A stretch of 64,000 bases of DNA from an uncultured delta proteobacterium (GCA_963816145.1 CAWFJP010000031.1:416001-480000); one strand, 5' to 3'; positions 8,069 through 63,878 are shown, counted from the stretch's first letter. Translations and numbers: made by a program. Notes: generated by a model from the sequence alone, not told the origin.

Positions 8069-8079
8069 ACCATCCGGAT

Positions 8080-15933: not shown

Positions 15934-16022
15934 TTCTTGGTTGCGCCCCTACCACCACATTGCGGCACAGTTTCTGTCGGGGCCGGACTCTCATCACTTG
16001 TAATGCCAGAGCGAAAGGCTCT

Positions 16023-21107: not shown

Positions 21108-21201
21108 AAGTGTTTGGCTGTTCGGCGATGCACCCAATGGCCCAAGTTTGGCGATGAATCATTGAATCTTATAACCCAGTTCCTTCGCGACTTCGCGTGC
21201 C
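21108..21201. repeat. Direct repeat copy 2 (94 bp)
   Basis: Matches 13024..13117; includes SBP C-terminus and ~50 bp downstream. Confidence 0.95.
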
Positions 21202-22151: not shown

Positions 22152-22196
22152 TTGTTTGTTTTTCCGCTTCTTCCGACTTTCGTGTGAAGAATTTTT

Positions 22197-22272
22197 CACC
22201 ACAGAGGTCGCAGAGTTCGGAGTAATGCTTATCAAAACCTCTCGGCTCTGCGTCCTCAGCGTCTTTGCGGTG
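22197..22272. repeat. Palindrome with 9-bp tandem arms (variant)
   Basis: caccacagaggtcgcagag ... ctctgcgtcctcagcgtctttgcggtg. Confidence 0.7.
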
Positions 22273-22319
22273 CAATCCTGATCCATGATTCACAGGGAAA
22301 CCTGAATTGCCGTATTTCT

Positions 22320-23855: not shown

Positions 23856-24869
23856 CTACGGCAATTTGTAGCCCAATTCTTTTGCGACTTCCGTTGCCGG
23901 ACGGTCGTCGGCGACTTCGGCGAAACTTACTTTGCGGTCGGTGAAGCGGCCCTGCGCTTGGAGCGAGCGCACCAGGTTGTCGATGCCGGCGCGATTGGGA
24001 ATCCCGGTCGGATTCAACGTCGTCTGGAAAGCGTCGTAGGTGTCGGCGGCGCCCTGACTGTCCATTTTCAAAAGCCGCATAATTAACTCGACGGTCTTGG
24101 GTTTGGACTTGCGCACTTCGTCTTTGGCGACCTGCAGCGCGCGAATGACACGCCGGACTTCTGCGGGCCGCTCTTGCACGGTTTTTACCATCGCCGTCAG
24201 ACCTCCGCCGGGCATCTCGACCATGGCGCCGACATCCATGAGTTTGTTAAAGCCCTTTTTGGCCGCGGCGAAAATATGCGGCGGCGACATCAGCGCGGCT
24301 TCGACGAAGCCGGATTCGAGAGAATAGAGAATCTGCAATTGCTGGCCGGGGATGGCGACCATCGTATAATCTCTCGGGTTGGCGCCCGACTTCTCCAGCG
24401 CGATCATCAAGGCGACATGGTTGGTGCCGCCGACGCCGCCGGAGAGGGCGATCTTTTTGCCTTTGAGATCTTGCAGCGTCTTGTACTGCGGCGCGGCCTG
24501 AATCCAGTAGGAGATCCGATCCGACGAAAACCAGATCGCTCGCGACTGCAACCCCGTGAGGGTGGCGGCCACCGATGCCGGGCCGACGCCGGCAACGTAA
24601 TCGATATCGCCCTGAGCCATCGCCGCGGCGCCGATGGGCGGGCTCATGACGATGATTTCGACATCGAGACCATTGGCACTGAAAGTTCCCCAGTCGCGGG
24701 CGGCTAGGAGCGGCAGGGCGGTGATCGTCAGGCCGGCGTTGGAGATTCTTACCTTGGCGCGCTTTTCCTGACTCGATGCGATGGACGCACCGAGAAAGAT
24801 TAGTAATAGTGCGGCGCAAATTGGCCAAACCGATCGGCGGGGCGTTGTGGATTTATAAAATTGACTCAT
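23856..24869 (-). CDS. ABC substrate-binding protein, NMT1/SsuA family
   Basis: Signal peptide, VEMPGGGLT shared with paralogs. Confidence 0.87.
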   Translation of the reverse strand: MSQFYKSTTPRRSVWPICAALLLIFLGASIASSQEKRAKVRISNAGLTITALPLLAARDWGTFSANGLDVEIIVMSPPIGAAAMAQGDIDYVAGVGPASVAATLTGLQSRAIWFSSDRISYWIQAAPQYKTLQDLKGKKIALSGGVGGTNHVALMIALEKSGANPRDYTMVAIPGQQLQILYSLESGFVEAALMSPPHIFAAAKKGFNKLMDVGAMVEMPGGGLTAMVKTVQERPAEVRRVIRALQVAKDEVRKSKPKTVELIMRLLKMDSQGAADTYDAFQTTLNPTGIPNRAGIDNLVRSLQAQGRFTDRKVSFAEVADDRPATEVAKELGYKLP

Positions 24870-24902
24870 TGAATGTCCTTCGCGCTCCGCCCTCGATGTT
24901 TG

Positions 24903-24940
24903 CCCTCACCCTAGCCCTCTCCCACTTCCTGGGCGAGGGA
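24903..24940. repeat. REP-like CCCTCACCCTAGCCCTCTCC hairpin
   Basis: Related to 44153, 34316 and 49854 elements. Confidence 0.7.
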
Positions 24941-24960
24941 AAAGATTTCGGGCGTTTGAA

Positions 24961-25953
24961 TCATGGGATTTTGTAGCCCATCTCTTTGGCTACTTCGATC
25001 GCGAGGCGGTCGTCGGCGATGTCTGTGAACGCCACTTTCTTGTCGAGGTGTCGTCCTTGGGATTGCACCGACTTCACCAAGATATCCATGCCGATGCGCG
25101 TGGGTATGCCAGTGGGGCTCAACGTCGTGAGAAACTGATCGTAAGTGTCGCTGGCAGCTTCCCGATCCATGCGCAACAGCTTGACGATCAAGTCCAAGCT
25201 TTTCTGTTTGGATTTGCGAATCTCGTCCTTGGCCGTCTGCAGCGAGCGAATCACCCGTTTGGTGTCTGTCGGCCGCTCTTGAATGGTCTTGGCCAAAGTG
25301 GTGAGACCGCCGCCGGGCATTTCCACCAGGGCGCCGACGTCAAGGACTTTACTAAAACCTTTTTTCTGCGCGCCCAAAGTCACCGGCGGCGACAACACCG
25401 CGGCATCGACATAGCCGGACTCCAGGGAAATCAGTTGTTGAATCTGTTGGCCGGCGATGGAGACCAATACATAGTCCTTGGGATTGGCGCCGACTTTTTC
25501 CAACGCCATGTTAAAGGCGACATGCACTGTGCCGCCAAGACCCGTAACCGCAACCTTTTTCCCCTTGAGACTTTCGACGGTTTTGAACTGCGGCTTGGCC
25601 ATCAGCCAGTAGGAGATGCGCTCGGTGGAAAACCAGATGGCGCGGGTGGCGAAGCCGCTCATGGTCGCGTTGACCGACGCCGGGCCGACACCGGCTTGAT
25701 AGTCGATGTCGCCCTGGGTGAGCGCGGCCGGCACCAATGCCGACTGCATCAATATGACTTCCATATCCAGGTTGTTGGCGTTGAAGATGCCCCACTCCTT
25801 CGCGGCCAACAGCGGCAGTGCCGTGATCGTAAAGCCGGCGTTGGTGATGCGCAATTTACGCCGCTCCTGGCTCGCTCCATTACTCGCTAGGAGTACCGTT
25901 ACGCAGAGACTTATGGTCAGCTGTAAAATTGGCTTTCGCATGGTGATTTTCAT
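24961..25953 (-). CDS. ABC substrate-binding protein, NMT1/SsuA family
   Basis: Signal peptide, VEMPGGGLT. Confidence 0.87.
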   Translation of the reverse strand: MKITMRKPILQLTISLCVTVLLASNGASQERRKLRITNAGFTITALPLLAAKEWGIFNANNLDMEVILMQSALVPAALTQGDIDYQAGVGPASVNATMSGFATRAIWFSTERISYWLMAKPQFKTVESLKGKKVAVTGLGGTVHVAFNMALEKVGANPKDYVLVSIAGQQIQQLISLESGYVDAAVLSPPVTLGAQKKGFSKVLDVGALVEMPGGGLTTLAKTIQERPTDTKRVIRSLQTAKDEIRKSKQKSLDLIVKLLRMDREAASDTYDQFLTTLSPTGIPTRIGMDILVKSVQSQGRHLDKKVAFTDIADDRLAIEVAKEMGYKIP

Positions 25954-25978
25954 ATGGCGAGATGCGCTGAATTGCAAA

Positions 25979-37696: not shown

Positions 37697-38668
37697 CTAC
37701 CGTCCAATCGATCCTTCTCTAATGATATCATCCAAAATCGTTTCGTCGATAAACTGCGCCGCGCTGATCGGACGGTCGATCTTCTGCCCGGCGCGGGCGA
37801 AGTCGACAAGCAGTTGATAGCCTTCGACGCGATTTCTGCCGTCGGGGCTAAGGAGTTCGAGCAACACTTTGTACGCTAGGCCGGCGATCTCCTGATCCAT
37901 GCCGAACTCGCGCATGATCATTTGCGTGGTGTCGGCGCGGTTGTCGCGGATGTAGTTCATGGCGCGTAGCGCGGCGCGCATGAAGCGCTTGATCATGTTC
38001 GGTTGCTTCTTGATTTTATCGGCGTGGGTGACGAACGCCGTGCCCGGAACGTCGACATAGTCACGGGTGGCGGCAATCTTGATAAATCCGTCTTTCTCGG
38101 CGCGCAGGCTGTGCGGCGCGCTCAACATCGATGCGGCGAGGGTTCCCGACTTCAACGCCGCGTACCGTTCCGGTGTGCCGCCCATGTTCAACAAAATAAA
38201 ATCGCGCTCGGGTGAGAAGCCTTCCTTGACGATAATCCTGCGCAGCAGCGTGTCGACCAGCCCCCCGGGGTTGAGCGAACCTATGGATTGGCCTTTGAGT
38301 TGGGCCAGGTTGCGATATTTCGTCTGAGCGTAGAGCGCCTGATCGACGAAGGCGTTCATACTCATGACCACCCGCAGCGGCGCGCCGGCGACGAACGCTG
38401 TGACCGCCGTAGTGCTGCCGGTGCCGAAGTCGGCATCGCCGGTGATGATCGCCTTGATATCGATGCCGCCGCGCATGTAGACCATGCTGACGCTCAAGTT
38501 TTCTTTTTGAAAAAAGCCGCGCCGCTGCGCGGTTTCCAGGATTGGAAAGTTGGTGATCGACTTGCTCGGATAGCTGACAACGACGCGGTCGACGGATGTT
38601 TGCGCTTCGGCGCGATGCGCGATTAGCAACGTCAATGAAAAAAGCGCGAGAAAGATTCCCTTCAGCAT
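37697..38668 (-). CDS. ABC substrate-binding protein, NMT1/SsuA family
   Basis: Signal peptide, RGFFQKENL, ERYAALKSG. Confidence 0.87.
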   Translation of the reverse strand: MLKGIFLALFSLTLLIAHRAEAQTSVDRVVVSYPSKSITNFPILETAQRRGFFQKENLSVSMVYMRGGIDIKAIITGDADFGTGSTTAVTAFVAGAPLRVVMSMNAFVDQALYAQTKYRNLAQLKGQSIGSLNPGGLVDTLLRRIIVKEGFSPERDFILLNMGGTPERYAALKSGTLAASMLSAPHSLRAEKDGFIKIAATRDYVDVPGTAFVTHADKIKKQPNMIKRFMRAALRAMNYIRDNRADTTQMIMREFGMDQEIAGLAYKVLLELLSPDGRNRVEGYQLLVDFARAGQKIDRPISAAQFIDETILDDIIREGSIGR

Positions 38669-41790: not shown

Positions 41791-41818
41791 TTGCCTGTTG
41801 CCTAATGCCTGCTGCCTA
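41791..41818. repeat. Solo heptamer arm (TGCCTRN family)
   Basis: ttgcctgttgcctaatgcctgctgccta. Confidence 0.65.
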
Positions 41819-44133
41819 GTTCCTCCCCTCCGCCTTGCGGATCAGCTCCCACAGCTTGGGCGCGGTGTAGGGCATGTCGACATGATCGATGCCGAGGGGT
41901 TTGAGCGCGTCCATAAGCGCGTTGGCCACCGACGGCGGCGCGCCGTTGGTGCCGCATTCGCCGACGCCTTTGACCCCCAAGGGATTGAACGGATTGGGCG
42001 TGATGGTTTCACCGAGGATCATCGGCGGCATATCGCCGGCGCGCATGATGGCGTAGTTCATGAACGTGCCGGTTTCCACTTGTCCATCGGCACTGTAGAG
42101 CATCTGTTCGCGCATCGCTTCGCCCAGACCTTGGGCGACGCCGCCGTGGATCTGCCCTTCGACGATCATCGGGTTGATGACGACGCCGCAGTCGTCGACC
42201 ATGATCAGTTTTTCCAAGTTGAACTTACCGGTGTCGCGGTCGATGCTGACCAGCGAGATGTGGGTGCCGAAGCCCCAAGCTTCGCGTTTGGGATCGAAGA
42301 ATGAGGTTTCCTGCAGGCCGATCTCCATGCCTGTCGGCACGCGGCCACCGTAGGCGGCGGCGGCGACTTGGCGCCAGCTGATTTTCTTCTCGGGCACGCC
42401 CTTGACGGTGAAGCCACCGTTGGTCTGAACAATGTCCTCCGGTGCTGCTTCGACCAGGAAGGCGGCGATGCGTTTGCCTTTGTCGATGACGCGCTCGGTT
42501 GCAGTGGCGAGCGCGCCGCCGCCGACCACGGCGCTGCGGCTGCCGAAGGTGCCGGTGCCTTGCTGGCTCACATGGGTGTCGCCGTGCAGCACGGTGACGT
42601 GATCCATGCTGGTCTGCATTAGATCTCAGCGGCGATCTGCGCCCAGGAGGTTTCATGGCCTTGTCCGTGGGAGCTCGACCCGGTGAGCACGGTGATCTCG
42701 CCGGTGCGCTCGACGCGCACGCTGCCGCTTTCAAAACCGGCGCCGCCGCTCGGTTCGACGAAGGTGGAAAAGCCGACGCCGACCAGCTCGCCGTTTTTGC
42801 GCCGGGCATCGCGCTGGCGCAACAGCTCTTCGTAGTTGGATAGTTTCAATGCCTCGCGCAGGGGCTTCTCGTAATCGCCGGAATCGTATTCGACGCCGGT
42901 GCCGGTGGTGTAGGGGAATTGCTCGGGCCGAATGAAATTCTTCCGGCGGATTTCCAGGCGGTCCATGCCAAGCACGTCCGCGGCTTTGTCGAGCAGCCGC
43001 TCGATGTTCAACACCGACTCGGGCCGGCCGGCGCCGCGATAGGGACCGGTGGGGCAAGTGTTGGTGAACACGCTGACGATCTCGACGCGGCAGTCTTTGA
43101 TCTGATAGCTGCCGCAGGCCATGCCCATCATGCGTTGCGGCGGTCCGGCGGTGCTCGAGTGCAGATAGGCGCCAAGGTTGGCGACGACTTTTACTTTCAA
43201 TCCTAAAATCTTGCCATCTTTTCTGAGCGCCATCTCGGAAGTCATTGCCTGATCGCGGCCTTGGATCGTCGTCAAAAAATCTTCGCTGCGAGTGGCGATC
43301 CATTTGACCGGCTTGCGCAGTTTGAGCGCGAGATGGCAGGCGACGATATCTTCACGGTAGACTGGACCTTTGCTGCCGAAGCCGCCGCCGACATCGGGAG
43401 CGATCAAATGAATTCTATGCTCGGGAAAACCGGTCACACCGGCGATCTCGGCGCGAGCGCGGTGCGGTCCTTGGGTCGACAGCCAAACGGTCAGGTTTTT
43501 GCCAAATGGATCGGGGCTGGCGACGATGCCGCGCGGTTCCATAGCCAGCGCCACCTGGCGCGGACTGGCGATATGCATGGTGAAGACATGGTCCGCGGCG
43601 GCAAACGCTTTGTCGACATCGCCGCCGTTTTTGGTCAACGTGTAACAGATGTTGCTGTCGAGATCCTGATGCGCCAGCGGTGCGCCGGGTTTGAGCGCGT
43701 CTTCGGCGTTGGACACGCCGGGCAAGGCATCGTATTCGACGACGATTTCATGCGCGGCGTCTTCGGCCTGCGCGCGCGTCTTGGCGACCACGGCCGCCAC
43801 CGGCACGCCGACACAGTGCACCGCGCCGCGGGCGAGCACGGGATGCGCGGGAATTTTCATGTTCGGCAGCACCTGCGACGGCGCGAGATTCAACTTCGCA
43901 TCGAGATCGTTGCCGGTGACGACCAGTTCGACGCCAGCCATGGTTTTGGCCTTGCTAGTGTCGATGGAAATTATCTTGGCGTGCGGGTAAGGACTGCGTT
44001 GAAATGCCAGATAAAGCATCCCCGGCAGATGAATATCGTCGGTGTAGCAGCCCTTGCCGGTGATCAGCGGCGGATCTTCGACCCGTTTGGGCGAAGCGCC
44101 TATGAGTCCGGTTACTTCATGTTCGGTTGCCAT
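41816..44133 (-). CDS. Xanthine dehydrogenase-family molybdopterin subunit (CoxL-like), frameshift near 42620
   Basis: PDVGGGFGSK, PYRGAGRPE, HGQGHET, GVKGVGE. Confidence 0.88.
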
Positions 44134-45961: not shown

Positions 45962-46963
45962 ATGCTAAAACATATCGCCAGCGCGGTGTTAGTACTGCTC
46001 TTCTCAAGTTACGCCGCAGCGGCGCCTGCCTTGCAAAAGGCCAACTTTGCGCATGCGACGCTTTCGGCGCGCTTGGCGCCGCTTTGGCTGGCGCAGGAGC
46101 AGGGCATCTTTGCCAAGTACGGCATCGGCGCGGAAGTTATATTGGTGCGCAGCGGAGCGGCATTGATTGCCGGGATCGCATCCGGCGACATTCAAATGGG
46201 TTCGATCGGCGCCGGCACAGCGTTGGGCGCGGCGGCGAGCGGCGCCGACATCGCGATTGTCGCCAACTTCGCTAGCCGCGCGTCGGTGGAATTGGTCGCG
46301 CGACCGGGGATCAAGAGCGCCGAGGATTTGAAGGGCAAACGCTTCGGCATTCAAAGTTTTGGCGGCACCCTGTGGTTGTACACCATGATGGCGCTGGACC
46401 ATCTGGGTTTGGAGCCGGCACGGGACAAAATTCAGCTTCAAGTGGTCGGCGATGTCTCGGTGTTGGCGCGCGCGCTCGAGAGCGGCACCATCGACGCTGC
46501 GACGCTGAGTTCCGCGGCTTATAGCCGGCCGTTGCGCGAGAAGGGATTTTCGATTTTGGCCGATCTCAAGCTGCCGATCGCCGGGCAGACGATCATTGTG
46601 CGCAAGGCGCTGGCGCGCCAAGCGCCTGAACTGATTGACGGCTTGCTCAGAGCCCAGATCGAAGGGGTGGCATTTGCCGTTAGCCCGCGCAACAAGGCGG
46701 TGGTTTATGACACCATGCGCCGGCGCTTGCGAATCACTAATCCGACGGGTTTGGAGGAAAGTTATTCAGACATGATGGCCGAAGTGGATCGCAAGCCCTA
46801 TCCTTCCACCGAGGGCTTGGCAAACATCCAACGCTTTATGAAGGCGGTCAGTCCGAAGCTGGCGGAGCTCAAAATTGACGACGTGGCGGATCGCAGCTGG
46901 GTGCGCCGGCTCGATGAAAGCGGATTTATCGACCGCGTTTACGCGGCGCAGGGGGTGAAATAG
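45962..46963 (+). CDS. ABC substrate-binding protein, NMT1/SsuA family
   Basis: Signal peptide, QGIFAKYG, DLKGKRFG. Confidence 0.87.
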   Translation: MLKHIASAVLVLLFSSYAAAAPALQKANFAHATLSARLAPLWLAQEQGIFAKYGIGAEVILVRSGAALIAGIASGDIQMGSIGAGTALGAAASGADIAIVANFASRASVELVARPGIKSAEDLKGKRFGIQSFGGTLWLYTMMALDHLGLEPARDKIQLQVVGDVSVLARALESGTIDAATLSSAAYSRPLREKGFSILADLKLPIAGQTIIVRKALARQAPELIDGLLRAQIEGVAFAVSPRNKAVVYDTMRRRLRITNPTGLEESYSDMMAEVDRKPYPSTEGLANIQRFMKAVSPKLAELKIDDVADRSWVRRLDESGFIDRVYAAQGVK

Positions 46964-46998
46964 TTGCGATTGCCGCAGCGAAAGGGGATCGGAATGAT

Positions 46999-47126
46999 TC
47001 ACCACAGAGACCACAGAGCCACAGAGATCACAGAGGTCAAGACTCGGATTCGGAATATTTAACCGCAAAGAGCGCAAAGAACGCAAAAAAAAATTGAAAT
47101 GTAGGGGCGGGTTTCAAACCCGCCCT
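46999..47126. repeat. Repeat cluster: two solo 9-bp tandem arms plus GTAG REP
   Basis: accacagag x4, cgcaaagag x3, gtaggggcgggtttcaaacccgccct. Confidence 0.72.
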
Positions 47127-47132
47127 CTTCGA

Positions 47133-48416
47133 TTATTGTTTCTCGTTCGACTGCAAAGCGTCGAGCGCCTGCTGGACCAGTTTTCTACGCAGTTCTTTTT
47201 CATCCTTCAGCGGCAGCTTGGCGTCGCCAGTGACATGGACGATGCCGGTGCCTAAGACGACGCGGTTAGAGCCGACCATTTTGGCGATCGGTCGCGCCGA
47301 GGTAATTTGCACCACTGGGATGCCGGCTTTTTCAAGTTCGGTGGTGATCGCAGCGCCGCTGCGAGTGCTGGTGCCTCACGTGGACGTGAGAATCACCGCG
47401 TCGACGCCGTCACGTTTGATCTTCTGGGCCATTTCCCGGCCCAAACGGCGCGTGTTTGACAGCGGATTGGAGCGGCCGCAGGTGGAGAGAAACTCCTCGT
47501 GCAGTTTGCCGATCACGCCGCTTTTTTCCAGCTCGCGCAGGGCGTCGAGGGGCACCAAGCGGTCGGGATCGTCCTGGACAAACCTGGTGTCGTAACCGCC
47601 GTGCGAGACTTCATAGTCTTCACTGCGTAGATCGTCGCTGCCTTCGATGTTGTATGCGCCCCAGCGAGTCGCGGCGGTGCCTTCGATCTTGTCGGGATTG
47701 CCCTTGGGCACCAAGCCGCCGTCGGTGATGATCATCAGCTTGGCTTTCGATAGGTCTTTGATCGCGGCGGGCAACGGCACCGGCGCGAATGCGGTAGGCA
47801 GCATTTCCGATTCGAACTTTTCGCCTTTCAATTTGGCGACGAGCATGTCGACCATACGTGTGGCGGCGGTCTTTTCGACCAGCTGGTCGCGCAACAAGCC
47901 ACGGCTGATATAGCCTTCCAGAGCGGGCAATCCGATGGGTTGCTTGGCCACTAGTTTCTTGCCGAGTTTCGCCATGGTCGCGACGATATCGCGCATCTTG
48001 CTGATGTTGGTTCCCGAGTCGACGATGTGGAGCGTTTCGCGGTACAGATCGACGCCGGGATTTTCCACGTGCATCGCCGTGATTGCCGGAATAGCCAACT
48101 CGGACTGGATGGCCGTGCAGATCGCCCCGGCAGCCATGCCATAGCGTCCGGCATCGAAACAGGGACCGGCCGCAAAGAGATCGGCACCGATGATCCGCAC
48201 TTTATCGAGAACAGCCGCGATGACTTCGTCTTGATGTTCGACGGCGTAATTATCGCCGCAGACTATGCTCAGTGTTACAATCGCTTCATCGCCCATGAGC
48301 TGTTCGAATAGTTTTGCCGGCCCGAGCGCGCCGTCGCGAAATTCCACTGGCGCGCCGGCATGTTCTTCCGCGCCGATGCCGCCGAAAAATTGATTGACGT
48401 AGTAGACGATCTTCAT
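47133..48416 (-). CDS. grdB: Glycine/sarcosine/betaine reductase selenoprotein B family (427 aa, Sec at UGA 47376..47378)
   Basis: NQFFGGIG.EE, GGLVPKGNPD, HGGYD, LTST-UGA-GTSTRSG, continuing in frame to TAA. Confidence 0.88.
47348..47364 (-). promoter_or_regulatory. Candidate bacterial SECIS hairpin
   Basis: UCGCAGC-GGC-GCUGCGA, 17 nt, starting after an 11-nt spacer from the UGA. Confidence 0.65.
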
Positions 48417-48426
48417 GATTAGCTCC

Positions 48427-48513
48427 TAGGCAATAGGCAATAGGCACTAGGCAACAGTAAGAACGGATTTTTCGGAGCTCTTACTATTGCCTGTTGCCTC
48501 ATGCCTATTGCCT
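48427..48513. repeat. Gene-less inverted heptamer-arm element (AGGCAAT family)
   Basis: taggcaataggcaataggcactaggcaaca ... tattgcctgttgcctcatgcctattgcct. Confidence 0.82.
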
Positions 48514-48516
48514 TCT

Positions 48517-49794
48517 TCAATACACTAACGATCTCATCCTCGACGCGCCCTGTTGGTTGGTGACGCCGATGATGTTGTTGGCGTCGATGCTCATGGGTCC
48601 GACCAGCAGCTCGGCCAATTCCGGTTTCGCGGCAATCACCCGGGCGGCTTTTGGAATTTGATATTGCGTGCCGTTGCCGCCGTTGTAGACGATGGCGTTG
48701 ACTTCCGGGACGTTGAACAAGAGAGCCGACTCGACCCGGCGATCGCGCGATACGTCGGAGACCATCACCGCGGTTTTGATGCCGGATTGTTCCAACAGGC
48801 GCGCGGTTTCCGACAGGTCCGCGTGGGGCAGGCCGCCGCCGTACTTGGTCATCACGGCCCCGTCGGCGCGCAGCGTCCACTTAACCAGGTTTGCCGCGGC
48901 GTGGCACTGCCGTTCGCGGTCGACGTTGTCGTTGCCGGCGACGGTGCCGACGGTGCCGACAAAATTTATCTCGCGCGCTTGATGGCGTCGGTAGAGATCG
49001 AGGATCACCGGATGATTTTGATAAAAATAGGTCTCGGTGCCGCCAAACCAGGAATTGAGCGACGGCACCAGGGCGCCGTCGAGCCACTCGTCGGGATGCA
49101 ATATCACCGGCAACATGCCGTCGGTATTCGTGCCATAAAGAATCGGCTCGTCGACCGCCGGCTTGCGCTGGCGCGAAAAAATCTGGCCGATATAGACCAC
49201 GCGGGACAATCCTTCGCGGCTCGCGTCATTGGCGCCGATGGGCTCGAAGGTTTGTCTGGACGCGGGTTTTTGGTTTAGCGCTACACGGGCGAGATGCACA
49301 GCAACTTTGACACCGGCGACGCGATACGCTTTCAACACCGCCGAGCGCGGCAACCCCGGCTTGGTCTGCGGGACAATCAACAGGTGGCGTAGTTTCGAAT
49401 AAGCGCTGCCGGCAGTAGCATTGCCATTCATCTCCAACACGCGTCCAGTAGCGCTGCGCGATGGGTCGGGGCTCATTTCGGCGAGGACCGAAACCGCGGC
49501 GCCGGCAAGCACATGGGTTGTGCCCATCCCTGCGGTGGTCGGCGGCCCGATGATGCCCGGAAAGTCGCTGCCGCCGTCGGCTTTGGCGCGCGGTTCGACG
49601 ACATCGAATATCGGTCCGGCGCGGCAGCTCTCGCCCGGGCGAACGATCTCGAAAGCGACATTTTCAATCGCTTCATCTTGCAGCACCAAACTGCAAAGCG
49701 CTTCGCGATCGACTGTGAGCGCGCTGCCGTCGAGCGCGAGCCGCGCGCCGAATTGAATGTCGGTGATTAAATGGCTGGCGAGCGTGAGTTGCAT
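48517..49794 (-). CDS. Glycine/sarcosine/betaine reductase component B alpha/beta subunit (GrdE/GrdI-like)
   Basis: PGESCR..DVVEPRAK, FPG, G.THVLAG, HPDEWLDGA, YQNHP, INFVG. Confidence 0.85.
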   Translation of the reverse strand: MQLTLASHLITDIQFGARLALDGSALTVDREALCSLVLQDEAIENVAFEIVRPGESCRAGPIFDVVEPRAKADGGSDFPGIIGPPTTAGMGTTHVLAGAAVSVLAEMSPDPSRSATGRVLEMNGNATAGSAYSKLRHLLIVPQTKPGLPRSAVLKAYRVAGVKVAVHLARVALNQKPASRQTFEPIGANDASREGLSRVVYIGQIFSRQRKPAVDEPILYGTNTDGMLPVILHPDEWLDGALVPSLNSWFGGTETYFYQNHPVILDLYRRHQAREINFVGTVGTVAGNDNVDRERQCHAAANLVKWTLRADGAVMTKYGGGLPHADLSETARLLEQSGIKTAVMVSDVSRDRRVESALLFNVPEVNAIVYNGGNGTQYQIPKAARVIAAKPELAELLVGPMSIDANNIIGVTNQQGASRMRSLVY

Positions 49795-49853
49795 AAGATA
49801 TCTACCTCAGGGCACTCTAATTCCGCACGAAGGACATTGTCAACGTAATGGTT

Positions 49854-49943
49854 CCTTCCCCCGTTTCGGGGGAAGGCAAGGATGGGGGGAGTAACGGCTG
49901 AAATGCATGCCCCCACCTTCATCCTCCCCCGAGACGGGGGAGG
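49854..49943. repeat. Paired REP-like hairpins
   Basis: Family of 34316..34414. Confidence 0.72.
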
Positions 49944-50012
49944 AAATAAGAAGTAAATGTACGTCTTCGATCACGACTTGTAGCTGTTACAAATTCCGTT
50001 CACAATCGCGCC

Positions 50013-51505
50013 ATGATCCGTTTCTCGCCGCTACCAAACAACGCCCACATTATCCCCTGGCGGGAATGGGGCGACGAGGCGTTTTCTGCGCCCGCGCCGA
50101 GGATAGACCGGTGATGCTATTCTTAGGCGCGTTTTGGTGCCGGTACTGTCAGCGCATGGATGAGCAAGCCTTCTCCGACACCGAAGTGATCGCCCTGCTC
50201 AACGCCTACTTTGTTCCGCTGCGGGTCGATTATATGCAGCGTCCTGACGTGGACGCGCGTTACAACTTGAACGGCTGGCCGACCATCGCGTTTATGGCGC
50301 CCAACGGGCAGTTGCTCGGCGCCGTCAATTATTTGCCGGCCGATCAGTTCAAGGAATTGCTCATTGACGTTTACATGAGCTACGAGCAGCGCAAAGAAGA
50401 GCTTCGCGCGGCGGCGCAAAACGCGGACGAGTCATCGGCGCAGCCAGTGCGACAGCTGGATGAGTCGCAGCTGGCAGCGAATCTGACGCAGATCACCGAG
50501 GCGATCATGGCGCTGGCGGACCGGACCCACGGCGGTTACGACCCCGGTCAGAAATTCATCCATCCCCAGGTTAACGATTTTTTGCTCGAACGTTATCAAG
50601 CGACCAACGACCGGCAATATCTCGATCAGGTGTGTCTGACGCTTGAGCGCATGCGCGCCGGGGAGCTTTACGATCATGAAGGCGGCGCCTACTTTCGCAC
50701 CTCGTCCAATCCGGACTGGAGCCATCCGCACCGGGAAAAATTGTTGTTGGAAGAGGCCGGGCTACTGGCCAATTGCCTGGCAGTATTTCGCTTGACTCAG
50801 CGGGCCGATTACCGGCGCATGGCCGAGGAGATAATTGAGTACCTGGATGCCAAACTCTACGATACCGCCGTCGGAGTGTTCCATGGTTGCGAAGATTGGC
50901 TGCGCCATGAACCGCCGATTCCCGGCGGCGATGAATTTTTCACGATCATCGACCGCTGCATTTACACTGACGCCAATGCGGTTGCCAGCGCCGCGTATCT
51001 CGATGCCGCGGTGTTACTAGACAAGCCGCAGTATGGCGAACGAGCGCTCGCCATGCTGGAGTTTCTCTGGCAGAACTGCCACAGCGACAGCTTGGGGATG
51101 TTTCACTATTTTGACGGCGCGGCGCATGTGGCGGGGTTGCTGCAGGATCAAGCGCAGGTGGGTATCGCGCTGTTGCGAGCGTACGAAGTCACCGGACGCG
51201 CAGTTTGTTTGGATCGGGCGCGGCAGTTGGCTGAATTCATCTTGACGGAGTTAAGCAGTCCCGCCGGCGGCTTCCACGACATACGCGCACAGGATTCAGC
51301 GGTGCTCAGGCTTCGTTTGACTTTGATCGAACAGAACGGCGCCGCGGCGAGTTTCTTTCTGGCTTTGGTCCAGGCGGCGAATGATGCCAAGTATCGCGCC
51401 GCCGCGCGCCACGCGTTCAGTGCAGTCTTCGGTGAATTTGCCCAGTACGGCGTCCATGCGGCGCCCTTCGGCCGGGCGCTGGCGGTTTACCTTAAATTGG
51501 GGTGA
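50013..51505 (+). CDS. YyaL/DUF255 thioredoxin-domain protein (frameshift near 50085)
   Basis: IPWREWGDEAF joins RAEDRPV..WCRYC..M, RPDVDARY, GWPT, HREKLL. Confidence 0.82.
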
Positions 51506-53376: not shown

Positions 53377-54666
53377 GTGGAAATGGATATCAAATCACTA
53401 GTCGATCCGGAAGGCGGTCTCATCGACCGGCGCATCTTCGCCGACCGGGAGATCTACGACTTGGAACGGGAGCGCATCTTCGCGCGCTGCTGGCTCTATC
53501 TGGGCCACGAGTGTGAGATTCCCAACCCCGGCGATTTTGTCACTCGCTATATGGGCGAGGATCCGGTGATCCTGGCGCGGGATTTAAACGGCCAGTTGCG
53601 CGCGCACTTGAACATGTGCCGCCATCGCGGCAATCGCGTCTGCCGCGCCGACCGCGGCAACACTAAATTGTTTCAATGCTCGTATCACGGCTGGTCGTAC
53701 ACCACCGACGGCAAACTCGCGTTGGTGCCAATGGTCGATGCCTTTGGCAATCTCGACCGCTCGCAGTGGGGTTTGGTTCCGGTAGCCCAAGTCGACAGTT
53801 ACAAGGGGCTCGTCTTCGCGACCTTCGACAAGGACGCGCCGCCATTGCGCGATTATCTCGGCGACATGGCCTGGTATTTGGATATTCTCCTCGATCGTCG
53901 GGAAGGGGGTACGGAAGTGAGCGGGCCGCAGCGCTGGGTCGTCGACGCCAACTGGAAGACCGCCGCAGAAAATTTCGGCGGCGACGGCTACCATATCGCT
54001 TCGACTCACGGGTCGGCGCGCGAGCTGGGCATCGATACCACCACCAACCAGACCCGACAATGGAACAAAGGCTGTCAGATCGCCTGCGGCAACGGCCATA
54101 TTCTGGTTTCCTGGCTGACCCCGCCGGACGGCGGACCTTGGTTTGCTCAACCGGACGACCAGCTGGTCGATTATATGAAAGAGCATGAAGTCGAAATCGA
54201 AAACCGCCTGGGAACCAAGCGGGCGCGGCAAATTTCGCCGTCGGCTGGAACGGTATTCCCTAATTTATCGGTGCACTGGCTGACCCGGACGATTCGCGTC
54301 TGGCAGCCGCGCGGGCCGGACAAGATGGAGATCTGGAGCTGGGCGATCGTCGACAAGGCCGCCTCGCCGAAAATCAAAGACGTCATGCGTTTCGTGTCGC
54401 AGTATCGCTTCAGTCCGTCGGGAGTCTTCGAACAAGACGACATGGACAACTGGATCCAAGTGACCGGCGCGGCAAGAAGTTTGATCGGCCGGCGATTTCC
54501 AGCCAATTATCAGATGAGCGGCAACGAGCCGCCGGTGGAATTAGATCTACCGGGACGCGTCAAAAGCCGCTTCAGTGACAACAATCAGCTGAGCCTGTAC
54601 CTGCACTGGGCGAAGATGCTGCAGGCGAATAATTGGCGCGAGCTCGCGAGCGGAACAAATGGATAG
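53377..54666 (+). CDS. Aromatic ring-hydroxylating dioxygenase alpha subunit
   Basis: CRHRG, CSYHGW, ENF..DGYH...TH, FEQDD. Confidence 0.93.
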   Translation: MEMDIKSLVDPEGGLIDRRIFADREIYDLERERIFARCWLYLGHECEIPNPGDFVTRYMGEDPVILARDLNGQLRAHLNMCRHRGNRVCRADRGNTKLFQCSYHGWSYTTDGKLALVPMVDAFGNLDRSQWGLVPVAQVDSYKGLVFATFDKDAPPLRDYLGDMAWYLDILLDRREGGTEVSGPQRWVVDANWKTAAENFGGDGYHIASTHGSARELGIDTTTNQTRQWNKGCQIACGNGHILVSWLTPPDGGPWFAQPDDQLVDYMKEHEVEIENRLGTKRARQISPSAGTVFPNLSVHWLTRTIRVWQPRGPDKMEIWSWAIVDKAASPKIKDVMRFVSQYRFSPSGVFEQDDMDNWIQVTGAARSLIGRRFPANYQMSGNEPPVELDLPGRVKSRFSDNNQLSLYLHWAKMLQANNWRELASGTNG

Positions 54667-55168
54667 CCAACTACGCCATCAGGTCGAAGACTTCTACTAT
54701 CTCGAAGCCGAGCTGCTCGACGAGCGCAAGCTGCGCGAGTGGTTCGAGCTATTGACCGAAGATATTCGCTACTGGATGCCGCTACGGCACAACCCGCTGG
54801 AGCGGCCCGAAAGCGTCAGCGAAGAACTGTCCCGACCCGGTGAAGCCTATTACTTCGACGACGATTGGAAAAGTTTGAAAATCCGCGTCGAGCGCGCTTA
54901 TTCGAAGATCGCCTGGGCGGAAGTGCCGCCGTCGCGCACGCGCCACTTGATTACCAACATTCGTATCAAAAAAGACGACGGCAGCGAAGTCGTAGCCCAC
55001 TCCAACTTTCTCGTCTACCGTACGCGCATGGAAAGCGACAAAGATATTTTTGTCGGGGCGCGCCAGGACATCCTGCGGCGCGAGGGTGAAAGCTTCAAGA
55101 TAGCCAGTCGGACGATCATCCTCGATCAGGCCGTGCTGGATGCGAAGAATATCAGTGTGTTTTTGTAA
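54659..55168 (+). CDS. Aromatic ring-hydroxylating dioxygenase beta subunit
   Basis: EAELLDER, WAEVPPSRTRH, KNISVFL. Confidence 0.92.
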   Translation: MDSQLRHQVEDFYYLEAELLDERKLREWFELLTEDIRYWMPLRHNPLERPESVSEELSRPGEAYYFDDDWKSLKIRVERAYSKIAWAEVPPSRTRHLITNIRIKKDDGSEVVAHSNFLVYRTRMESDKDIFVGARQDILRREGESFKIASRTIILDQAVLDAKNISVFL

Positions 55169-59080: not shown

Positions 59081-59926
59081 TCATTCCGAGCCTTCGACTT
59101 GCAGCTGCAATGGGTTGCCGTCGTAGTCGGTGAAGTACAGTCCATGGGCCGTGGCGCTGCGCACCTGCGTCTGTTCCAACGCGTCGACTTTGCCGCCTTC
59201 GCGCGTCACCGCCCCGCGAAATTGCTTTAAGGTGTCCGCCGTCGGCGTGAAGAAAGCGTAGTGCTGTCCTTCGAAGCGGTAGTGGGCGCTGCTACGCTCG
59301 TTAAGCGCTTTGACTTTGTGGAGTACCAGCCACTGCCCGCTATGTAGCTGCAAACAAGAGGTCTCGTGGCCGAGTGTGTCTTGCTCACGGCCCAACACTT
59401 TCAAACCGAACACGTTGCGATAAAAAGCCTCGGATCGATCCAAGTCGGTGACTTCCAATTCTAACTGGCTCAAACCCAGATAGGCGGAGCCGTTGTTTGC
59501 GGCAGAACCGGCCTTCTCGATGAGTTCAAGATGATTGCCGAAGGGATCTTGCAACAGGATGGATTTTGCCCTGGGGCCGAGCCGTTCGCGTAAGCGCGGA
59601 CCGTCGAACTTCACCGTTGGCTTTTCTTCCAGCCGCTGCTGAATGCGCCTGAAACCCTCGCCGGTGACTTCGATGCCCACCACCGGCGCGCCGTGCAATT
59701 CTTTATCCTCGGGCAGCGGCTCGCGGCCGAGAAACAGACCGACGCGGCTTCCCGCCACATTTAAAAAAGTCCGGGGCAACGTGCCGGCGCGCACGTCGAC
59801 GACGCGAAGACCGCGCCGTTCGAAGATCGGCACTTCCAGCATGCCGGTGTAAAAGTCCTCGGCTTTGACGAGATCGTCAACCGGATAAGCGAAATGATCG
59901 AAGCGAATAGAGGCTTGGGTGTCCAT
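59081..59926 (-). CDS. Two-domain VOC family protein
   Basis: DHFAYPV..FY, DPFGNHLE, DYDGNPLQ. Confidence 0.82.
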   Translation of the reverse strand: MDTQASIRFDHFAYPVDDLVKAEDFYTGMLEVPIFERRGLRVVDVRAGTLPRTFLNVAGSRVGLFLGREPLPEDKELHGAPVVGIEVTGEGFRRIQQRLEEKPTVKFDGPRLRERLGPRAKSILLQDPFGNHLELIEKAGSAANNGSAYLGLSQLELEVTDLDRSEAFYRNVFGLKVLGREQDTLGHETSCLQLHSGQWLVLHKVKALNERSSAHYRFEGQHYAFFTPTADTLKQFRGAVTREGGKVDALEQTQVRSATAHGLYFTDYDGNPLQLQVEGSE

Positions 59927-60164: not shown

Positions 60165-60584
60165 ATGTCTATCGATGGTCTTCGTTTTGGCCATGTGGCC
60201 TTTAAAGTCGCGGATGTGGAGAAGAGCATTCGCTGGTACGGCGACGCCTTTGGCGCCAAGGTGATCTATCGCGTCGCGCCGAGCGGGGACCGGCCGGAGC
60301 TGATGTTCTTGGAGTTTGCCAAAGGCCAGTGTGTCGAGCTTTTCCCCGGTGGCAAGAATGTTCTAGCTTCGCCGCCGGATCCGATCGGCTATATACATTT
60401 CTGCCTGGTGCTCGACAATTTGGAGCAGGCACTGGAGCATCTGGCGAAGATGGGTGTCAAACCGGATCGCAAATTCATTGGCCGCGCCAAGCAGCGCATT
60501 GCGTTCGTCTCCGATCCCGATGGCAACAGCATCGAACTGATGGAAATTCCGCCGGAGTCGGAAATCTACCGGACCTACCCATGA
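60165..60584 (+). CDS. VOC/glyoxalase family protein
   Basis: GHVAFKV, HFCL, DPDGNSIELM. Confidence 0.88.
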   Translation: MSIDGLRFGHVAFKVADVEKSIRWYGDAFGAKVIYRVAPSGDRPELMFLEFAKGQCVELFPGGKNVLASPPDPIGYIHFCLVLDNLEQALEHLAKMGVKPDRKFIGRAKQRIAFVSDPDGNSIELMEIPPESEIYRTYP

Positions 60585-61561
60585 TGCGAAGGATTTACCG
60601 ATTCGGCGTGCTAATGGCGCTGCTGCTGGTTTGCATCGGTGAATCCCGAGCGCAGACCTCCGGCGCGCGCAAGGCACCCATTCGAATCATCTACAGCGCG
60701 CTTACGGCGTCCAACGGGCCGGTTTGGGTTGCGGCGGATCAGGGGCTTTTCGAGAAGTACGGTCTCGATGTCCAGATCGTCCATGGCCGCGGCGCATCGC
60801 CGATTCAAGCGCTGGCCGGCGGTACCGTCGAGTTGGGCCACTTTGCCGGTGCTTCAGTGGTCCAAGCTAATCTTAGCGGCAGCGATCTGGTTTTTGTCGC
60901 GGCGCAGACCAACTACGTCGTGCTATCGATTTGGACGCGCAAGGATTCACCGATTAGAACTCTCGCGGACTTGGCCGGCAAAAGCATCGGCGTGAGCGCG
61001 CCGGGCTCGGCGACACACACGACAACGCGCGCGGCTCTGCGCAGGGCCGGGGTGGCGGACAAGGATATGAAATTTGTCCACCATGGCGCGCTGCCGGAAA
61101 TCTTCGTTTCGTTGGACAAAGGTTTGGTCGATGCCGGCGTCGCTTCGGCGCCGCGGCCGGCTTTCCGTGAACTCGTCGATCTGGCGACACAACGGATTCC
61201 GTTTCTCCAAGGCGCGATCATTGTCAACCGCGGTTATTTGCAGCGCGAACGACCGGTGGTGGTGAATTTCTTGAAAGGGTTCGTTGAAGCGATGAAGCTA
61301 GTGCGGGAAAAGCCGGAGGTGGTGACCGCTTCGCTAGCGAAGCATCTGCGCATCCCGGCGGATATTGCGCGCGGCGCCTATCGGTCGTTTGTCAATGTCT
61401 GGGAGGAAGTGCCTTACGTCAGGGCGGAGTCGGTGCAGGCGATCTTGGATTTTCTGCCGAAGGAACAGGTTAAAGACATCACGCCGGAAAAGTATATCGA
61501 CAACAGTTTGATCAAAGAGTTGGAAGCTTCGGGTTTTGTCAAGAATCTCTCTCGCAGGTAA
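60581..61561 (+). CDS. ABC substrate-binding protein, NMT1/SsuA family
   Basis: Signal peptide from MMRRIY, GLFEKYGLDV, DLAGKSIG. Confidence 0.87.
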   Translation: MMRRIYRFGVLMALLLVCIGESRAQTSGARKAPIRIIYSALTASNGPVWVAADQGLFEKYGLDVQIVHGRGASPIQALAGGTVELGHFAGASVVQANLSGSDLVFVAAQTNYVVLSIWTRKDSPIRTLADLAGKSIGVSAPGSATHTTTRAALRRAGVADKDMKFVHHGALPEIFVSLDKGLVDAGVASAPRPAFRELVDLATQRIPFLQGAIIVNRGYLQRERPVVVNFLKGFVEAMKLVREKPEVVTASLAKHLRIPADIARGAYRSFVNVWEEVPYVRAESVQAILDFLPKEQVKDITPEKYIDNSLIKELEASGFVKNLSRR

Positions 61562-61569
61562 TTCTTCGT

Positions 61570-62649
61570 TCAGTACGGTTCGAAGTTGCGCAACACTGGC
61601 AGGACTTCGCTGCCGAACAGCTTGATCGAGCGTATTAAATCTTCTTCGACGATGGCGCCGATGTTGAACTCGGCCATGACGGTGTTGAACACGCCCTCGC
61701 TGGCGGCTTGCTTGATCTGTTCGATGACAGTTTTGGGCGAGCCGACAAAGGCTAAGTTGTGTTCGCGCAAATATTCGACGTCGATCGAGTGGCGCGCGAT
61801 TTCGGCGCCGCGGGGGTTGCCGCGTTTCTCATGGTTCTCGGCAAGCCGCTGGTAGCCGATGCCACCCTCGGCCCGGGTGCCAAAGACGTTGGTGAAGCAA
61901 TGTTCGAAATAGGGTTTTGCTTTAGCCACCGCTTTGGCGTCGGTCTCGTCGACGTAAACTAACACCCAGTAACCGATATTCGGCTTGCCCGTGTGGCCGG
62001 CGTCACGCCATAAACGCAAATATTCGCGATAGCGCGGCGCAACCTCGTCGCGCGGCACCAAAAAAAGATACCCCGTATGGACTCCTTCGCGGGCGAGGAG
62101 CGCCAGGGTGTCAGCGTCGCGCGAATGAATCCAAATCGGCGGATGGGGCTGCTGGAGCGGCTTAACGCCGAGCGTGACACTTTGATAATGATGAAATTCC
62201 CCGTTGAAGCTGAACGGCCCTTGGCTCGACAGCGCTTGTTTGATGCAGAGCAGCGCTTCGTGAGTGAGCGCGCGGCGATTGTTAAAATCAGCGCCGTAGG
62301 GTCCGAAGAAATCCGGGACGATGCCTGAAACTAAGCCGAGTTCGAAGCGGCCGTTGGCGAGGTTGTCCAACACTGCCGCATCCTCGACGATTCGCAACGG
62401 ATCGTAGAGCGGCACGACATTACCCATGGTACCGACGCGCAGCCGTCGGGTATGGGCGGCCGCCGCGGCGCAGTAAATCGACGGCGACGGCATCCAGCTT
62501 TCGCGCGGATTGAAGTGATGCTCGACGCAAAATCCAAAGTCAAAGCCCAAGTCGTCGCATGCCGTCAGTTCGCGCCAGAGTTGCTCATAGCGATCCGCGA
62601 CGGTGATGCCGGGCTTATTCCAAACATGGGAGAAATGAGCAAATTTCAT
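61570..62649 (-). CDS. LLM-class flavin-dependent oxidoreductase
   Basis: EHHF, NGRFELG, PLQQPHPPIW. Confidence 0.9.
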   Translation of the reverse strand: MKFAHFSHVWNKPGITVADRYEQLWRELTACDDLGFDFGFCVEHHFNPRESWMPSPSIYCAAAAAHTRRLRVGTMGNVVPLYDPLRIVEDAAVLDNLANGRFELGLVSGIVPDFFGPYGADFNNRRALTHEALLCIKQALSSQGPFSFNGEFHHYQSVTLGVKPLQQPHPPIWIHSRDADTLALLAREGVHTGYLFLVPRDEVAPRYREYLRLWRDAGHTGKPNIGYWVLVYVDETDAKAVAKAKPYFEHCFTNVFGTRAEGGIGYQRLAENHEKRGNPRGAEIARHSIDVEYLREHNLAFVGSPKTVIEQIKQAASEGVFNTVMAEFNIGAIVEEDLIRSIKLFGSEVLPVLRNFEPY

Positions 62650-62873: not shown

Positions 62874-63878
62874 TCAACGTTTCTTATAGAGGCCATCCGT
62901 ATAGCCGCTCAGATCCAATTCCTTCACGAAGCTTGCGTCGAAATAGTCCTCGGGATTGTGCGATTTGGCTTTCGGTTCAGAGGCGAGGATAGTTTTCAGA
63001 CCTTCGACCGACGGATACTGCTTTCTCGGCAGTACCGATTCACTGATCAAATTTTCCCAGGTCTTTTCTAAGACATCGCGATCGACCGTACGGCCAATGA
63101 ATCGCCCCAACGCCCGGATGGCGCTTTCTTTGTCGGTGTAAATGCGATGGACAGCCTCGATCTGTGATTTCACATAGCGCCTAACGATATCGCGATTTTC
63201 TCGAATATATTTTTTGGTCGTGGCGACAGCGGTGTGTTGGTAGACTAGTCCAAGCTTGGGCAGATCGGCGAGAGTGTTCATGCCGCGCTTTTGCGCGATA
63301 ATACTGGCCGGCGGATTTACCACGGTTGCTTGCACGCGTCCGGCGAGCACCGCGTCGACGCGCGCCGTGGTGCTGCCGATTTGCACGATGGTAACGTCCT
63401 TGCCGGGCGTCAAGCCAATCTTCGTCAGCGCGTAACGGGCGATAAAGTCAGATGACGAGCCGAACCGGCTGATCGCGACCGAGCCGCCCTTTAACTGCTC
63501 GGGAGTTTTTATTTCCGGCCGGCTTAACAGGTAGTAGTTCAACGAAATTACGCCGCCGGCGACGATTGTCGCATCCGAACCCGCCATGACTGAGTTCACG
63601 ACCGCCGGCCCGGCCAACTGCGCGATCGGCGTGTCGGCTGAGACCAGCGCCATGATCGCCGTCGTGCCGCCGGTGAAGAAAACCGGCTGAACGTCGAGGC
63701 CGTTCTTTTCGAAGATGCCGGCGTCCTTGGCGAGCCACGCCGGCAAAGCGTCACCGCTAATGGCGCTGTAGCCGACATTGAGTTTCGTCAGCTGCGCCCG
63801 CGCCGATTGCGATGAAACGACGAGCAGCACGACGTTAAGAATTATTCCGGCAAAGTGTTTCGTTTTTAGCATAAACAA
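62874..63878 (-). CDS. ABC substrate-binding protein, NMT1/SsuA family
   Basis: Signal peptide, GIFEKNGLDV, QLKG. Confidence 0.87.
   Translation of the reverse strand: MFMLKTKHFAGIILNVVLLVVSSQSARAQLTKLNVGYSAISGDALPAWLAKDAGIFEKNGLDVQPVFFTGGTTAIMALVSADTPIAQLAGPAVVNSVMAGSDATIVAGGVISLNYYLLSRPEIKTPEQLKGGSVAISRFGSSSDFIARYALTKIGLTPGKDVTIVQIGSTTARVDAVLAGRVQATVVNPPASIIAQKRGMNTLADLPKLGLVYQHTAVATTKKYIRENRDIVRRYVKSQIEAVHRIYTDKESAIRALGRFIGRTVDRDVLEKTWENLISESVLPRKQYPSVEGLKTILASEPKAKSHNPEDYFDASFVKELDLSGYTDGLYKKR

Follow-up and report, generated by a model that had tools for sequence, protein, structure and literature searches.

A widespread clade of GrdB-type selenoproteins with UxxSxxS in place of UxxCxxC and a GrdE-type partner lacking the canonical pyruvoyl-forming site

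Strictly anaerobic fermentation of amino acids is the textbook setting of GrdB-type selenoproteins, in which a UxxCxxC motif (U being selenocysteine, Sec) is treated as required. We analysed a 64,000-nucleotide (nt) stretch of DNA from an uncultured delta proteobacterium (GCA_963816145.1 CAWFJP010000031.1:416001-480000; hereafter the window) that carries, at positions 47133..49794, a GrdB-family gene, grdB', and a GrdE-family gene upstream of it, grdE'. The pair belongs to a large clade under strong purifying selection in which both cysteines of the motif and the pyruvoyl-forming site of the partner subunit are lost, and in which the Sec codon and a selenocysteine insertion sequence (SECIS)-like hairpin are kept. 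Its members are found mainly in Binatia-type and other soil and groundwater metagenome-assembled genomes (MAGs), near oxygenase genes. Our preferred reading, to which we give a probability of roughly 55%, is that the pair is the substrate-specific 'protein B' of a glycine-reductase-type selenoenzyme and belongs to a separate and widespread clade that acts on a substrate other than glycine or sarcosine.

The grdB' gene lies on the minus strand at 47133..48416 and contains an in-frame TGA at 47376..47378. Under translation table 11 it ends at this codon after 346 residues, whereas reading through gives a 427-residue protein that contains VILTSTUGTSTRSG (...DAVILTST-U-GTSTRSGAAITTELEKAG...), with Sec at position 347 and serines at positions 350 and 353 (codons 47367..47369 and 47358..47360), the positions of both cysteines in the classical motif. 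The original prediction, which noted that the open reading frame (ORF) track splits grdB at this TGA and read on to 427 residues, proved accurate in both coordinates and translation. The product matched Pfam GRDB (PF07355; 1e-130, 436.6 bits against a cut-off of 22) and TIGR01918, the glycine/betaine/sarcosine/D-proline reductase selenoprotein B family (467.6 bits, above the 65.45 cut-off), and a protein search with GrdB' found at least 5,428 relatives at E<=0.001 among 7,999 candidates scored. In the AlphaFold model of GrdB' (mean predicted local distance difference test score, 86.9), Sec347 sits between a strand (residues 340-345) and a helix (348-363) that carries Ser350 and Ser353. Foldseek comparison of this model with the PDB returned only generic alpha/beta matches (template modelling score <=0.24) and no fold lead, and sequence searches of the PDB with GrdB' and with GrdE' gave no match at E<=0.01.

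For comparison we fetched 80 loci of relatives; these are the best 80 of 139 genome matches, and the proportions of classes among them are not population estimates. Three motif groups were found. The motif UGTCTRCG occurred in 21 loci from Clostridia and allies, whose proteins are 44-48% identical to the GrdB' of the window. Five loci with mixed hosts carried UGTSTRCG (46-48% identity), and a second copy in one locus, L010, read UGSSTRCG. The window's own motif, UGTSTRSG, was present in 54 of the 80 loci, with 67-94% identity to its protein; the hosts are MAGs labelled Binatia, "delta proteobacterium", Thermodesulfobacteriota, Chloroflexota, Acidobacteriota and Verrucomicrobiota, and are mostly Binatia-type.

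The aligned codon was TGA in all 81 sequences (the window and the 80 loci). Beyond it the frame stayed open for 78-104 codons to a real stop in 79 of the 80 loci, and the remaining contig ended first. The original prediction, which suggested looking for the UGA and for UxxSxxS in homologues and took homologues ending at the UGA to speak against it, thus found agreement in the DNA of the relatives on each point. In the 70 codons that follow the TGA, the first, second and third codon positions had mean pairwise diversities of 0.119, 0.051 and 0.452 (54 UxxSxxS sequences), and over the 70 codons before it the corresponding values were 0.151, 0.084 and 0.500 (55 sequences); purifying selection on the tail is as strong as on the body. 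Beyond the true stop, in contrast, diversity was 0.75 at each of the three positions (53 sequences), which argues that the tail is translated. The tail consensus was more than 90% conserved over most of its 76 positions (54 sequences). Since TGA also ends more of the window's ordinary genes than any other stop codon (21 of 44 Pfam-supported ORFs), these data point to Sec recoding and not to a genome-wide change of code. A scan of the window for further TGA-interrupted genes yielded no second convincing candidate. The best 120 database relatives of GrdB', all at least 74% identical to it, are 346-356 residues long, that is, cut at the TGA; this truncation is a gene-calling artefact.

A SECIS-like hairpin with a 7-bp stem and a GGC loop lies at 47348..47364 on the minus strand, starting 14 nt after the U of the UGA. 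In an alignment of 81 sequences, 67 of them distinct, a 7-bp hairpin with a GGN loop recurred at this distance in all three motif groups. Pairing was found in 96.6% of cells; none of 500 shuffles matched the pairing value or the covariation score, and slid controls reached at most 62.5% pairing. Stem pairs 18-28 (CG in 42, UA in 25) and 19-27 (AU in 41, UA in 25) change on both sides between clades, although these compensatory switches represent few evolutionary events, not many. The AGC codon of Ser353 lies within the stem, and the TGC to AGC change that turned cysteine into serine is compensated on the 3' side. From the conserved TGA, the coding-like tail and the compensated hairpin, we strongly infer that grdB' is a genuine selenoprotein gene whose UGA347 is predicted to be read as selenocysteine.

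In a tree of 80 sequences drawn from the fetched loci and the window (53 UxxSxxS, 6 UxxSxxC and 21 classical; a quick search, unrooted, with L021 and L027 left out because their reading frames are broken upstream), the 53 UxxSxxS sequences made up one side of a branch of length 0.73 with a Shimodaira-Hasegawa-like approximate likelihood-ratio test (SH-aLRT) value of 100. The window grouped with L001-L005, and the second copy of L010 sat on a long branch. Both positions after Sec were serine in 53 of 53 clade sequences and cysteine in 21 of 21 classical ones. The original prediction was right that both downstream cysteines are serines in the window (UGTSTRSG), and the clostridial motif it gave was found, as TSTUGTCTRCG, in all 21 Clostridia-type loci. 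UxxSxxS defines one well-supported, widespread clade and is not a one-off; its recurrence with the TGA in 54 of 80 loci goes far beyond chance.

GrdB' did not fall into any named family of its kind. A published motif for glycine-type GrdB, as given in the accessible part of PMC9751293, matched 20 of the 21 classical sequences but none of the 53 UxxSxxS and none of the 6 UxxSxxC sequences, and a published GrdF motif matched 0 of 80. Scores were below the NCBIfam cut-offs for GrdB (TIGR01917; 425 bits against 602), GrdF (NF040794; 471.6 against 800), GrdH (NF040795; 434.3 against 775) and PrdB (TIGR04483; 93.9 against 300). The available portions of PMC13188914 and PMC6778437 give UxxC or UxxCxxC for GrdB and, for classical GrdB, GrdF and GrdH alike, UxxCxxC after Sec; GrdB' lacks it. 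The term "UxxSxxS" was not found in the literature searched, and "UxxS", where it appears in the accessible text of selenoproteome papers, refers to arsenate reductase. Among the matches listed for Binatia, Binatota and Desulfobacterota_B, the portions available make no mention of glycine reductase. Together, these comparisons support the prediction that GrdB' differs from the protein B of ordinary glycine reductase, and they bear out the description of the pair as non-canonical.

The partner gene, grdE', lies on the minus strand at 48517..49794 and encodes a 425-residue alpha-type subunit of the GrdE/GrdG/GrdI/FarE family (Pfam Gly_reductase, PF09338; 4e-74). Its best NCBIfam scores were far below the respective cut-offs, at 191.4 bits for GrdG (NF040793; cut-off 780) and 143.9 for FarE (NF053623; cut-off 675), and it reached 22.5 bits for PrdA (TIGR04480; cut-off 700). 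The translation contains DGALVPSLNSWFGG (in a longer stretch, ...WLDGALVPSLNSWFGGTETY...), in which L246-N247-S248, encoded at 49051..49059 on the minus strand, aligns with the pyruvoyl-forming G-N-C of classical GrdE. We aligned 37 clade sequences of at least 380 residues with 19 classical sequences using MAFFT. The classical site was an invariant G-N-C-V-S-A-C (19/19), in keeping with the cysteine that the original prediction had placed at the cleavage site, whereas the clade's stretch read [PT]-S-[LYF]-[NHYSQ]-[STNA]-[WS]. The canonical cysteine column fell opposite N247, not S248, with cysteine in none of the 37 clade sequences, and the second classical cysteine was likewise gone. Self-cleavage at N-S, as had been proposed, is unsupported because the pair varies in either register (N/H/Y/S/Q followed by S/T/N/A). 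With no conserved Asn-Cys site, GrdE' is most likely not cleaved and would carry no pyruvoyl group.

Loss of the pyruvoyl site is common in the GrdE family. Among the 110 full-length representatives nearest GrdE' (taken from the best 150 50%-identity cluster representatives and chosen at 370-470 residues), only 3 kept G-N-C; G-N-Y and other site variants were common among representatives of the family. None of the 110 reached the GrdG or FarE cut-off, so the uncharacterised part of the family is large. The family as a whole comprised 961 clusters at 50% identity (E<=0.001) and is far more varied than its named members.

Next to grdE', and divergent from it, lies a gene on the plus strand at 49907..51505 that encodes a thioredoxin-fold protein of the DUF255/Thioredox_DsbH family (PF03190; 2.3e-21, 76.9 bits against a cut-off of 27). 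Like other proteins of this YyaL- and SPATA20-like family, it has an N-terminal thioredoxin domain with a CxxC, here W-C-R-Y-C-Q at residues 77-82 (50138..50149, plus strand). The annotated start is probably too far upstream, as alignments with relatives begin near residue 62, and Met54 is found at 50066. Its closest solved chain is PDB 7tkv_A (5e-27, residues 53-315). The original prediction, which saw no thioredoxin reductase gene adjacent and proposed a stand-alone Sec enzyme, had overlooked this gene. Among the 38 clade loci with enough flanking sequence to be informative, 29 had a DUF255 gene no more than 4 kb upstream of grdB', and the count rose to 31 when the whole locus was considered; none of 16 informative classical loci had one. 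It adjoins grdE' in two orientations: in 16 loci the two genes point the same way, and in 13 they are divergent, the arrangement of the window. WCxxCQ was kept in all 31 loci in which the DUF255 N terminus was visible. DUF255 is the only neighbour common to subclades of the UxxSxxS group. The DUF255/YyaL/SPATA20 family is not known to have an established function, and the association gives this protein a concrete, testable candidate function. Among the literature matches listed, the accessible portions contained none linking DUF255, YyaL or SPATA20 with these reductases.

The wider neighbourhoods differ between the motif groups. Classical loci follow the order grdX-trxB-trxA-grdE-grdA-grdB-grdC-grdD, and grdA, grdC, grdD and trx were present in every classical locus that extends 4 kb or more to either side (14 of 14); UxxSxxC loci follow the order grdE-grdB-grdC-trx-grdA. 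The window pair shares with the clostridial and Peptostreptococcaceae GrdB and GrdE the families PF07355 and PF09338, the order grdE then grdB, the Sec codon in a TSTUGT context and a SECIS-like hairpin at the same distance. It differs in its 44-48% identity, in having UxxSxxS for UxxCxxC, in lacking G-N-C and the glycine-type motif, and in having no grdX-trxB-trxA-...-grdA-...-grdC-grdD operon around it. In 5 of the 54 clade loci (L009, L010, L024, L029 and L035), grdC and grdA lie directly upstream of grdE'-grdB'. The GrdA proteins of these five loci are intact, with HCFVUTA, and the GrdC of L009 scores 615 bits, above the equivalog cut-off of 450. With equivalog-grade grdC and intact Sec-encoding grdA upstream in five members, the view that the enzyme stands alone was not upheld for the clade. 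We considered and rejected 'full-length' database GrdA proteins (P0274, P0276, P0281 and P0284) as cysteine forms: they have W or G at the Sec position (CFVWT, CFVGT) and evidently derive from contigs translated under code 4 or 25, which makes them an annotation trap.

Two of these loci, L010 and L035, have two protein-B pairs each beside one grdC-grdA. The second pair of L010 lies at 14851-16128, and its GrdB (UGSSTRCG) is on a very long branch; the second UGTSTRSG copy of L035 lies at 11575-12696 on the minus strand, and the site of its GrdE partner reads V-I-S-Y-S-W-G. Such second pairs suggest diversification of substrates within the variant clades.

The nearest precedent is FarB/FarE of Cloacibacillus porcorum. 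According to the available part of PMC10838667, FarB has no CxxC after Sec, a motif described there as guarding Sec from oxidation; FarE has no processing cysteines and is not a proprotein, and GrdI is likewise unprocessed; and the selenoether formed on FarB is thought to be passed to GrdA and GrdC encoded elsewhere. The pair studied here makes the same two departures, no CxxC after Sec and no processing cysteine in the alpha subunit. The original prediction had missed this precedent of a system without these cysteines, published in PMC10838667. The two are not the same: GrdE' scores 143.9 bits for FarE, the major facilitator superfamily (MFS) antiporter and radical S-adenosylmethionine (radical-SAM) genes of the far system are not beside the window pair, and the hosts are Binatia-type MAGs here and Synergistota there. 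Betaine reductase, GrdH/GrdI, is comparable in its proposed mode, with an unprocessed alpha-type subunit and no Schiff-base substrate (GrdI, as described in the accessible text of PMC10838667). GrdH, compared here by profile and description, differs in that GrdB' is well below its cut-off and in that it carries UxxCxxC, according to the same portion of PMC6778437.

These comparisons suggest a mechanism for the preferred reading, that of a substrate-specific protein B. Sec would be inserted at UGA347 with the help of the downstream hairpin. Because GrdE' has no pyruvoyl site, Schiff-base activation would not be available and the substrate would have to bring its own leaving group; the accessible text of PMC10838667 makes the same argument for FarE/FarB and, likewise, for GrdI. 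By analogy with GrdH/GrdI and FarB/FarE, the substrate may be an acid whose alpha substituent is in itself a good leaving group, and it would bind without a Schiff base as in betaine and fluoroacetate reductase. The selenolate of Sec347 would then attack the alpha carbon and expel the leaving group to give a selenoether, again by analogy. The DUF255 WCxxCQ protein, in the slot that trxB-trxA holds in clostridial operons, may supply the thiols that the enzyme has lost, a role that gene order suggests. The selenoether would be handed to selenoprotein A and protein C encoded elsewhere in the genome; on this step the grdC-grdA genes beside the module in five clade loci lead us to lean, at about two to one, towards turnover that depends on A and C.

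Several observations weigh against this reading. By tblastn, no relative of grdA, grdC, grdD, grdX, thioredoxin or thioredoxin reductase was found anywhere in the 64-kb window, which agrees with, and extends, the earlier remark that no gene for selenoprotein A or GrdC/D is adjacent, and Pfam scans of 55 further window ORFs gave no grdA/C/D/X or trx relative either. No gene of the Sec machinery was seen in the window, and ARAGORN found no tRNA, hence no selC, within it; Rfam at gathering thresholds likewise gave no match within the 64 kb. Of the 34 clade loci that extend 4 kb or more in both directions, 30 have neither grdA nor grdC, and no grdD was found in any UxxSxxS or UxxSxxC locus among those fetched. 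DUF255 is absent within 4 kb in 9 of the 38 informative loci and from the whole locus in 7, and no other neighbour is conserved across the subclades. Cysteines do remain in the clade: C53 is retained in GrdB', which also has the clade-specific C86 (53/53) and C100 (50/53), and GrdE' has C57 and C297 in 37 of 37 clade sequences. One of them could serve as the resolving thiol, and the role proposed for DUF255 would then be unnecessary. Finally, an invariant serine in [PT]-S (37/37) lies 2-3 residues before the site of GrdE', and a serine-derived pyruvoyl is formally possible.

The strongest competitor, which we regard as a serious though distinctly less probable account, is a self-contained reductase of DUF255, GrdE' and GrdB' that works without GrdA and GrdC, the Sec347 selenoether being resolved by a cysteine of WCxxCQ or by one of the clade cysteines. 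It amounts to the stand-alone enzyme of the original prediction with a definite partner. D-proline reductase offers a model for this, as it works without protein A or C and forms no acetyl phosphate. It too has a Sec subunit of the GRDB family, PrdB, but the likeness ends there, with only 94 of 300 bits for PrdB and 22 of 700 for PrdA, which is a pyruvoyl proprotein according to the available part of PMC9908766. The lack of grdA, grdC and grdD from the 64 kb of the window and of grdA and grdC from 30 of 34 clade loci fits a self-contained enzyme, as does the window's own subclade of 18 sequences, none of which has grdA or grdC in the fetched flanks, and DUF255 is the sole neighbour conserved across subclades. 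Weaker support comes from abundance: GrdA-family matches are about tenfold fewer than those of GrdB (566 against at least 5,428), in a search that covered GrdA fragments of 84 residues or more. These 566 matches were seen as fragments and carry no genome linkage, so they do not settle the presence of proteins A and C, and several protein Bs can share a single protein A. Moreover, five clade members hold grdC-grdA together with DUF255, which argues that DUF255 is no simple replacement of protein A, and GrdC relatives of the same 483-residue type are very common (at least 6,913 at E<=0.001, 8,000 scored).

A fuller version of this idea, which we hold to be doubtful and a little less likely again, is that DUF255, GrdE' and GrdB' make up a selenoenzyme of three proteins, sufficient in itself, in soil bacteria exposed to oxygen (Binatia and others), which would perform reductive C-X cleavage without pyruvoyl and without proteins A and C, its resolving and reducing thiols having moved onto DUF255. 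If so, the DUF255/YyaL/SPATA20 family would gain its first biochemical role, and a reductive reaction both new and abundant would be defined apart from Stickland fermentation.

It is improbable, in our view, that GrdE' is still a proprotein whose pyruvoyl group forms from serine, at N247-S248 or in [PT]-S, and that a primary or secondary amine substrate is bound as a Schiff base and reduced. Other pyruvoyl enzymes usually derive the group from serine, according to the accessible portion of PMC9908766, the [PT]-S serine is invariant and the window itself has N-S, but relatives show H-S, Y-T, H-N, H-A, S-S and Q-S at that pair. The position of the canonical cysteine opposite N247, the loss of the second classical cysteine and the rarity of G-N-C (3/110) among nearby GrdE-family representatives, most of which have neither the cysteine nor the serine pattern, also speak against it. 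Neither Pro-Ser nor Thr-Ser is known as a cleavage pair for this enzyme class.

Far less probable is that the pair is the protein B of an ordinary glycine, sarcosine or betaine reductase with harmless substitutions. Membership of the Pfam and TIGR01918 families, and source annotations as "glycine reductase" or "betaine reductase", would suit such an enzyme, but its proteins form a separate clade at 44-48% identity to classical GrdB, fail the GrdB and GrdF motifs, score 425 of 602, 472 of 800 and 434 of 775 bits for GrdB, GrdF and GrdH, and lack the pyruvoyl site needed for glycine and sarcosine. These results counsel caution in annotating the genes of this clade as "glycine reductase". Almost certainly wrong is the notion that the TGA is a real stop in a truncated or decaying GrdB: it would account for the 120 database proteins of 346-356 residues, and the available part of PMC6778437 regards one B component that lacks UxxCxxC as probably a pseudogene, but the open frame in 79 of 80 loci (the other contig simply ending), the selection on the tail, its conservation and the co-varying hairpin all contradict it. 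Under the preferred reading of a protein B for another substrate, the clade would point to a reductive reaction, possibly a common one in soils.

Signals around the pair were also seen. An inverted repeat made of TAGGCAA-type heptamers, each arm 35 nt long (48428..48513), fills the spacer between grdE' and grdB'; the fold energy of this 100-nt spacer is -56.7 kcal/mol. Comparable spacer hairpins with different sequences, built from heptamer units such as TTGAACG and GGCGAGA, were present in 6 of 15 relatives examined (L005, L006, L017, L020, L024 and L046), and others had none. Words like GGCAATAGGCA number 8 in the window, where 0.73 would be expected, and a CACAGAG heptamer run follows the NMT1 gene; besides the spacer, the observation takes in 41792-41809 and 46989-47079. 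These heptamer-based intergenic palindromes look like a family resembling repetitive extragenic palindromic (REP) elements, and the one in the spacer possibly sets the relative expression of the two subunits. Upstream of grdE' on the minus strand is a promoter-like site, TTGACA-18-TAGAGT (49814..49843), a consensus match only, of which 2 were found against 1.3 expected. Just past the grdB' stop, a G+C-rich 10-bp inverted repeat at 47105..47125 (minus strand) is a possible terminator; the terminator scan passed over it, the T run being too distant from the stem.

The original prediction had noted oxygenases among the neighbours, and these are present: Rieske dioxygenase alpha and beta genes at 53377..55168, a glyoxalase-type dioxygenase gene at 59081..59926 and a luciferase-like monooxygenase gene at 61570..62649. 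The 64 kb also hold at least 10 genes for NMT1/SsuA-type ATP-binding cassette (ABC) substrate-binding proteins, unusually many (for example at 1600-2574, 5664-6668, 21159-22286, 23856-25977, 37697-38668, 45962-46963, 60329-61561 and 62874-63878), and they lie among luciferase-like monooxygenases, hydantoinase/oxoprolinase genes, an amidohydrolase and dioxygenases. From its gene content, the region looks like an island for the uptake and oxidative breakdown of organic nitrogen and sulphur compounds. At 41816-44133 on the minus strand, two ORFs of 504 and 267 residues, overlapping by ATGA at 42619, together make up the large subunit of a molybdenum hydroxylase of the xanthine-dehydrogenase/CoxL type; the same subunit is a single 771-residue ORF in L006, L017, L021 and L028 and has 504 residues in L002. 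Either a real split gene of the subclade or a shared frameshift is involved. At the other end of the window, an RtcB remnant of 106 residues (7793-8113, plus strand), which covers profile positions 1-64 of 426, is followed directly by an intact RNA 3'-phosphate cyclase gene at 8180-9196.

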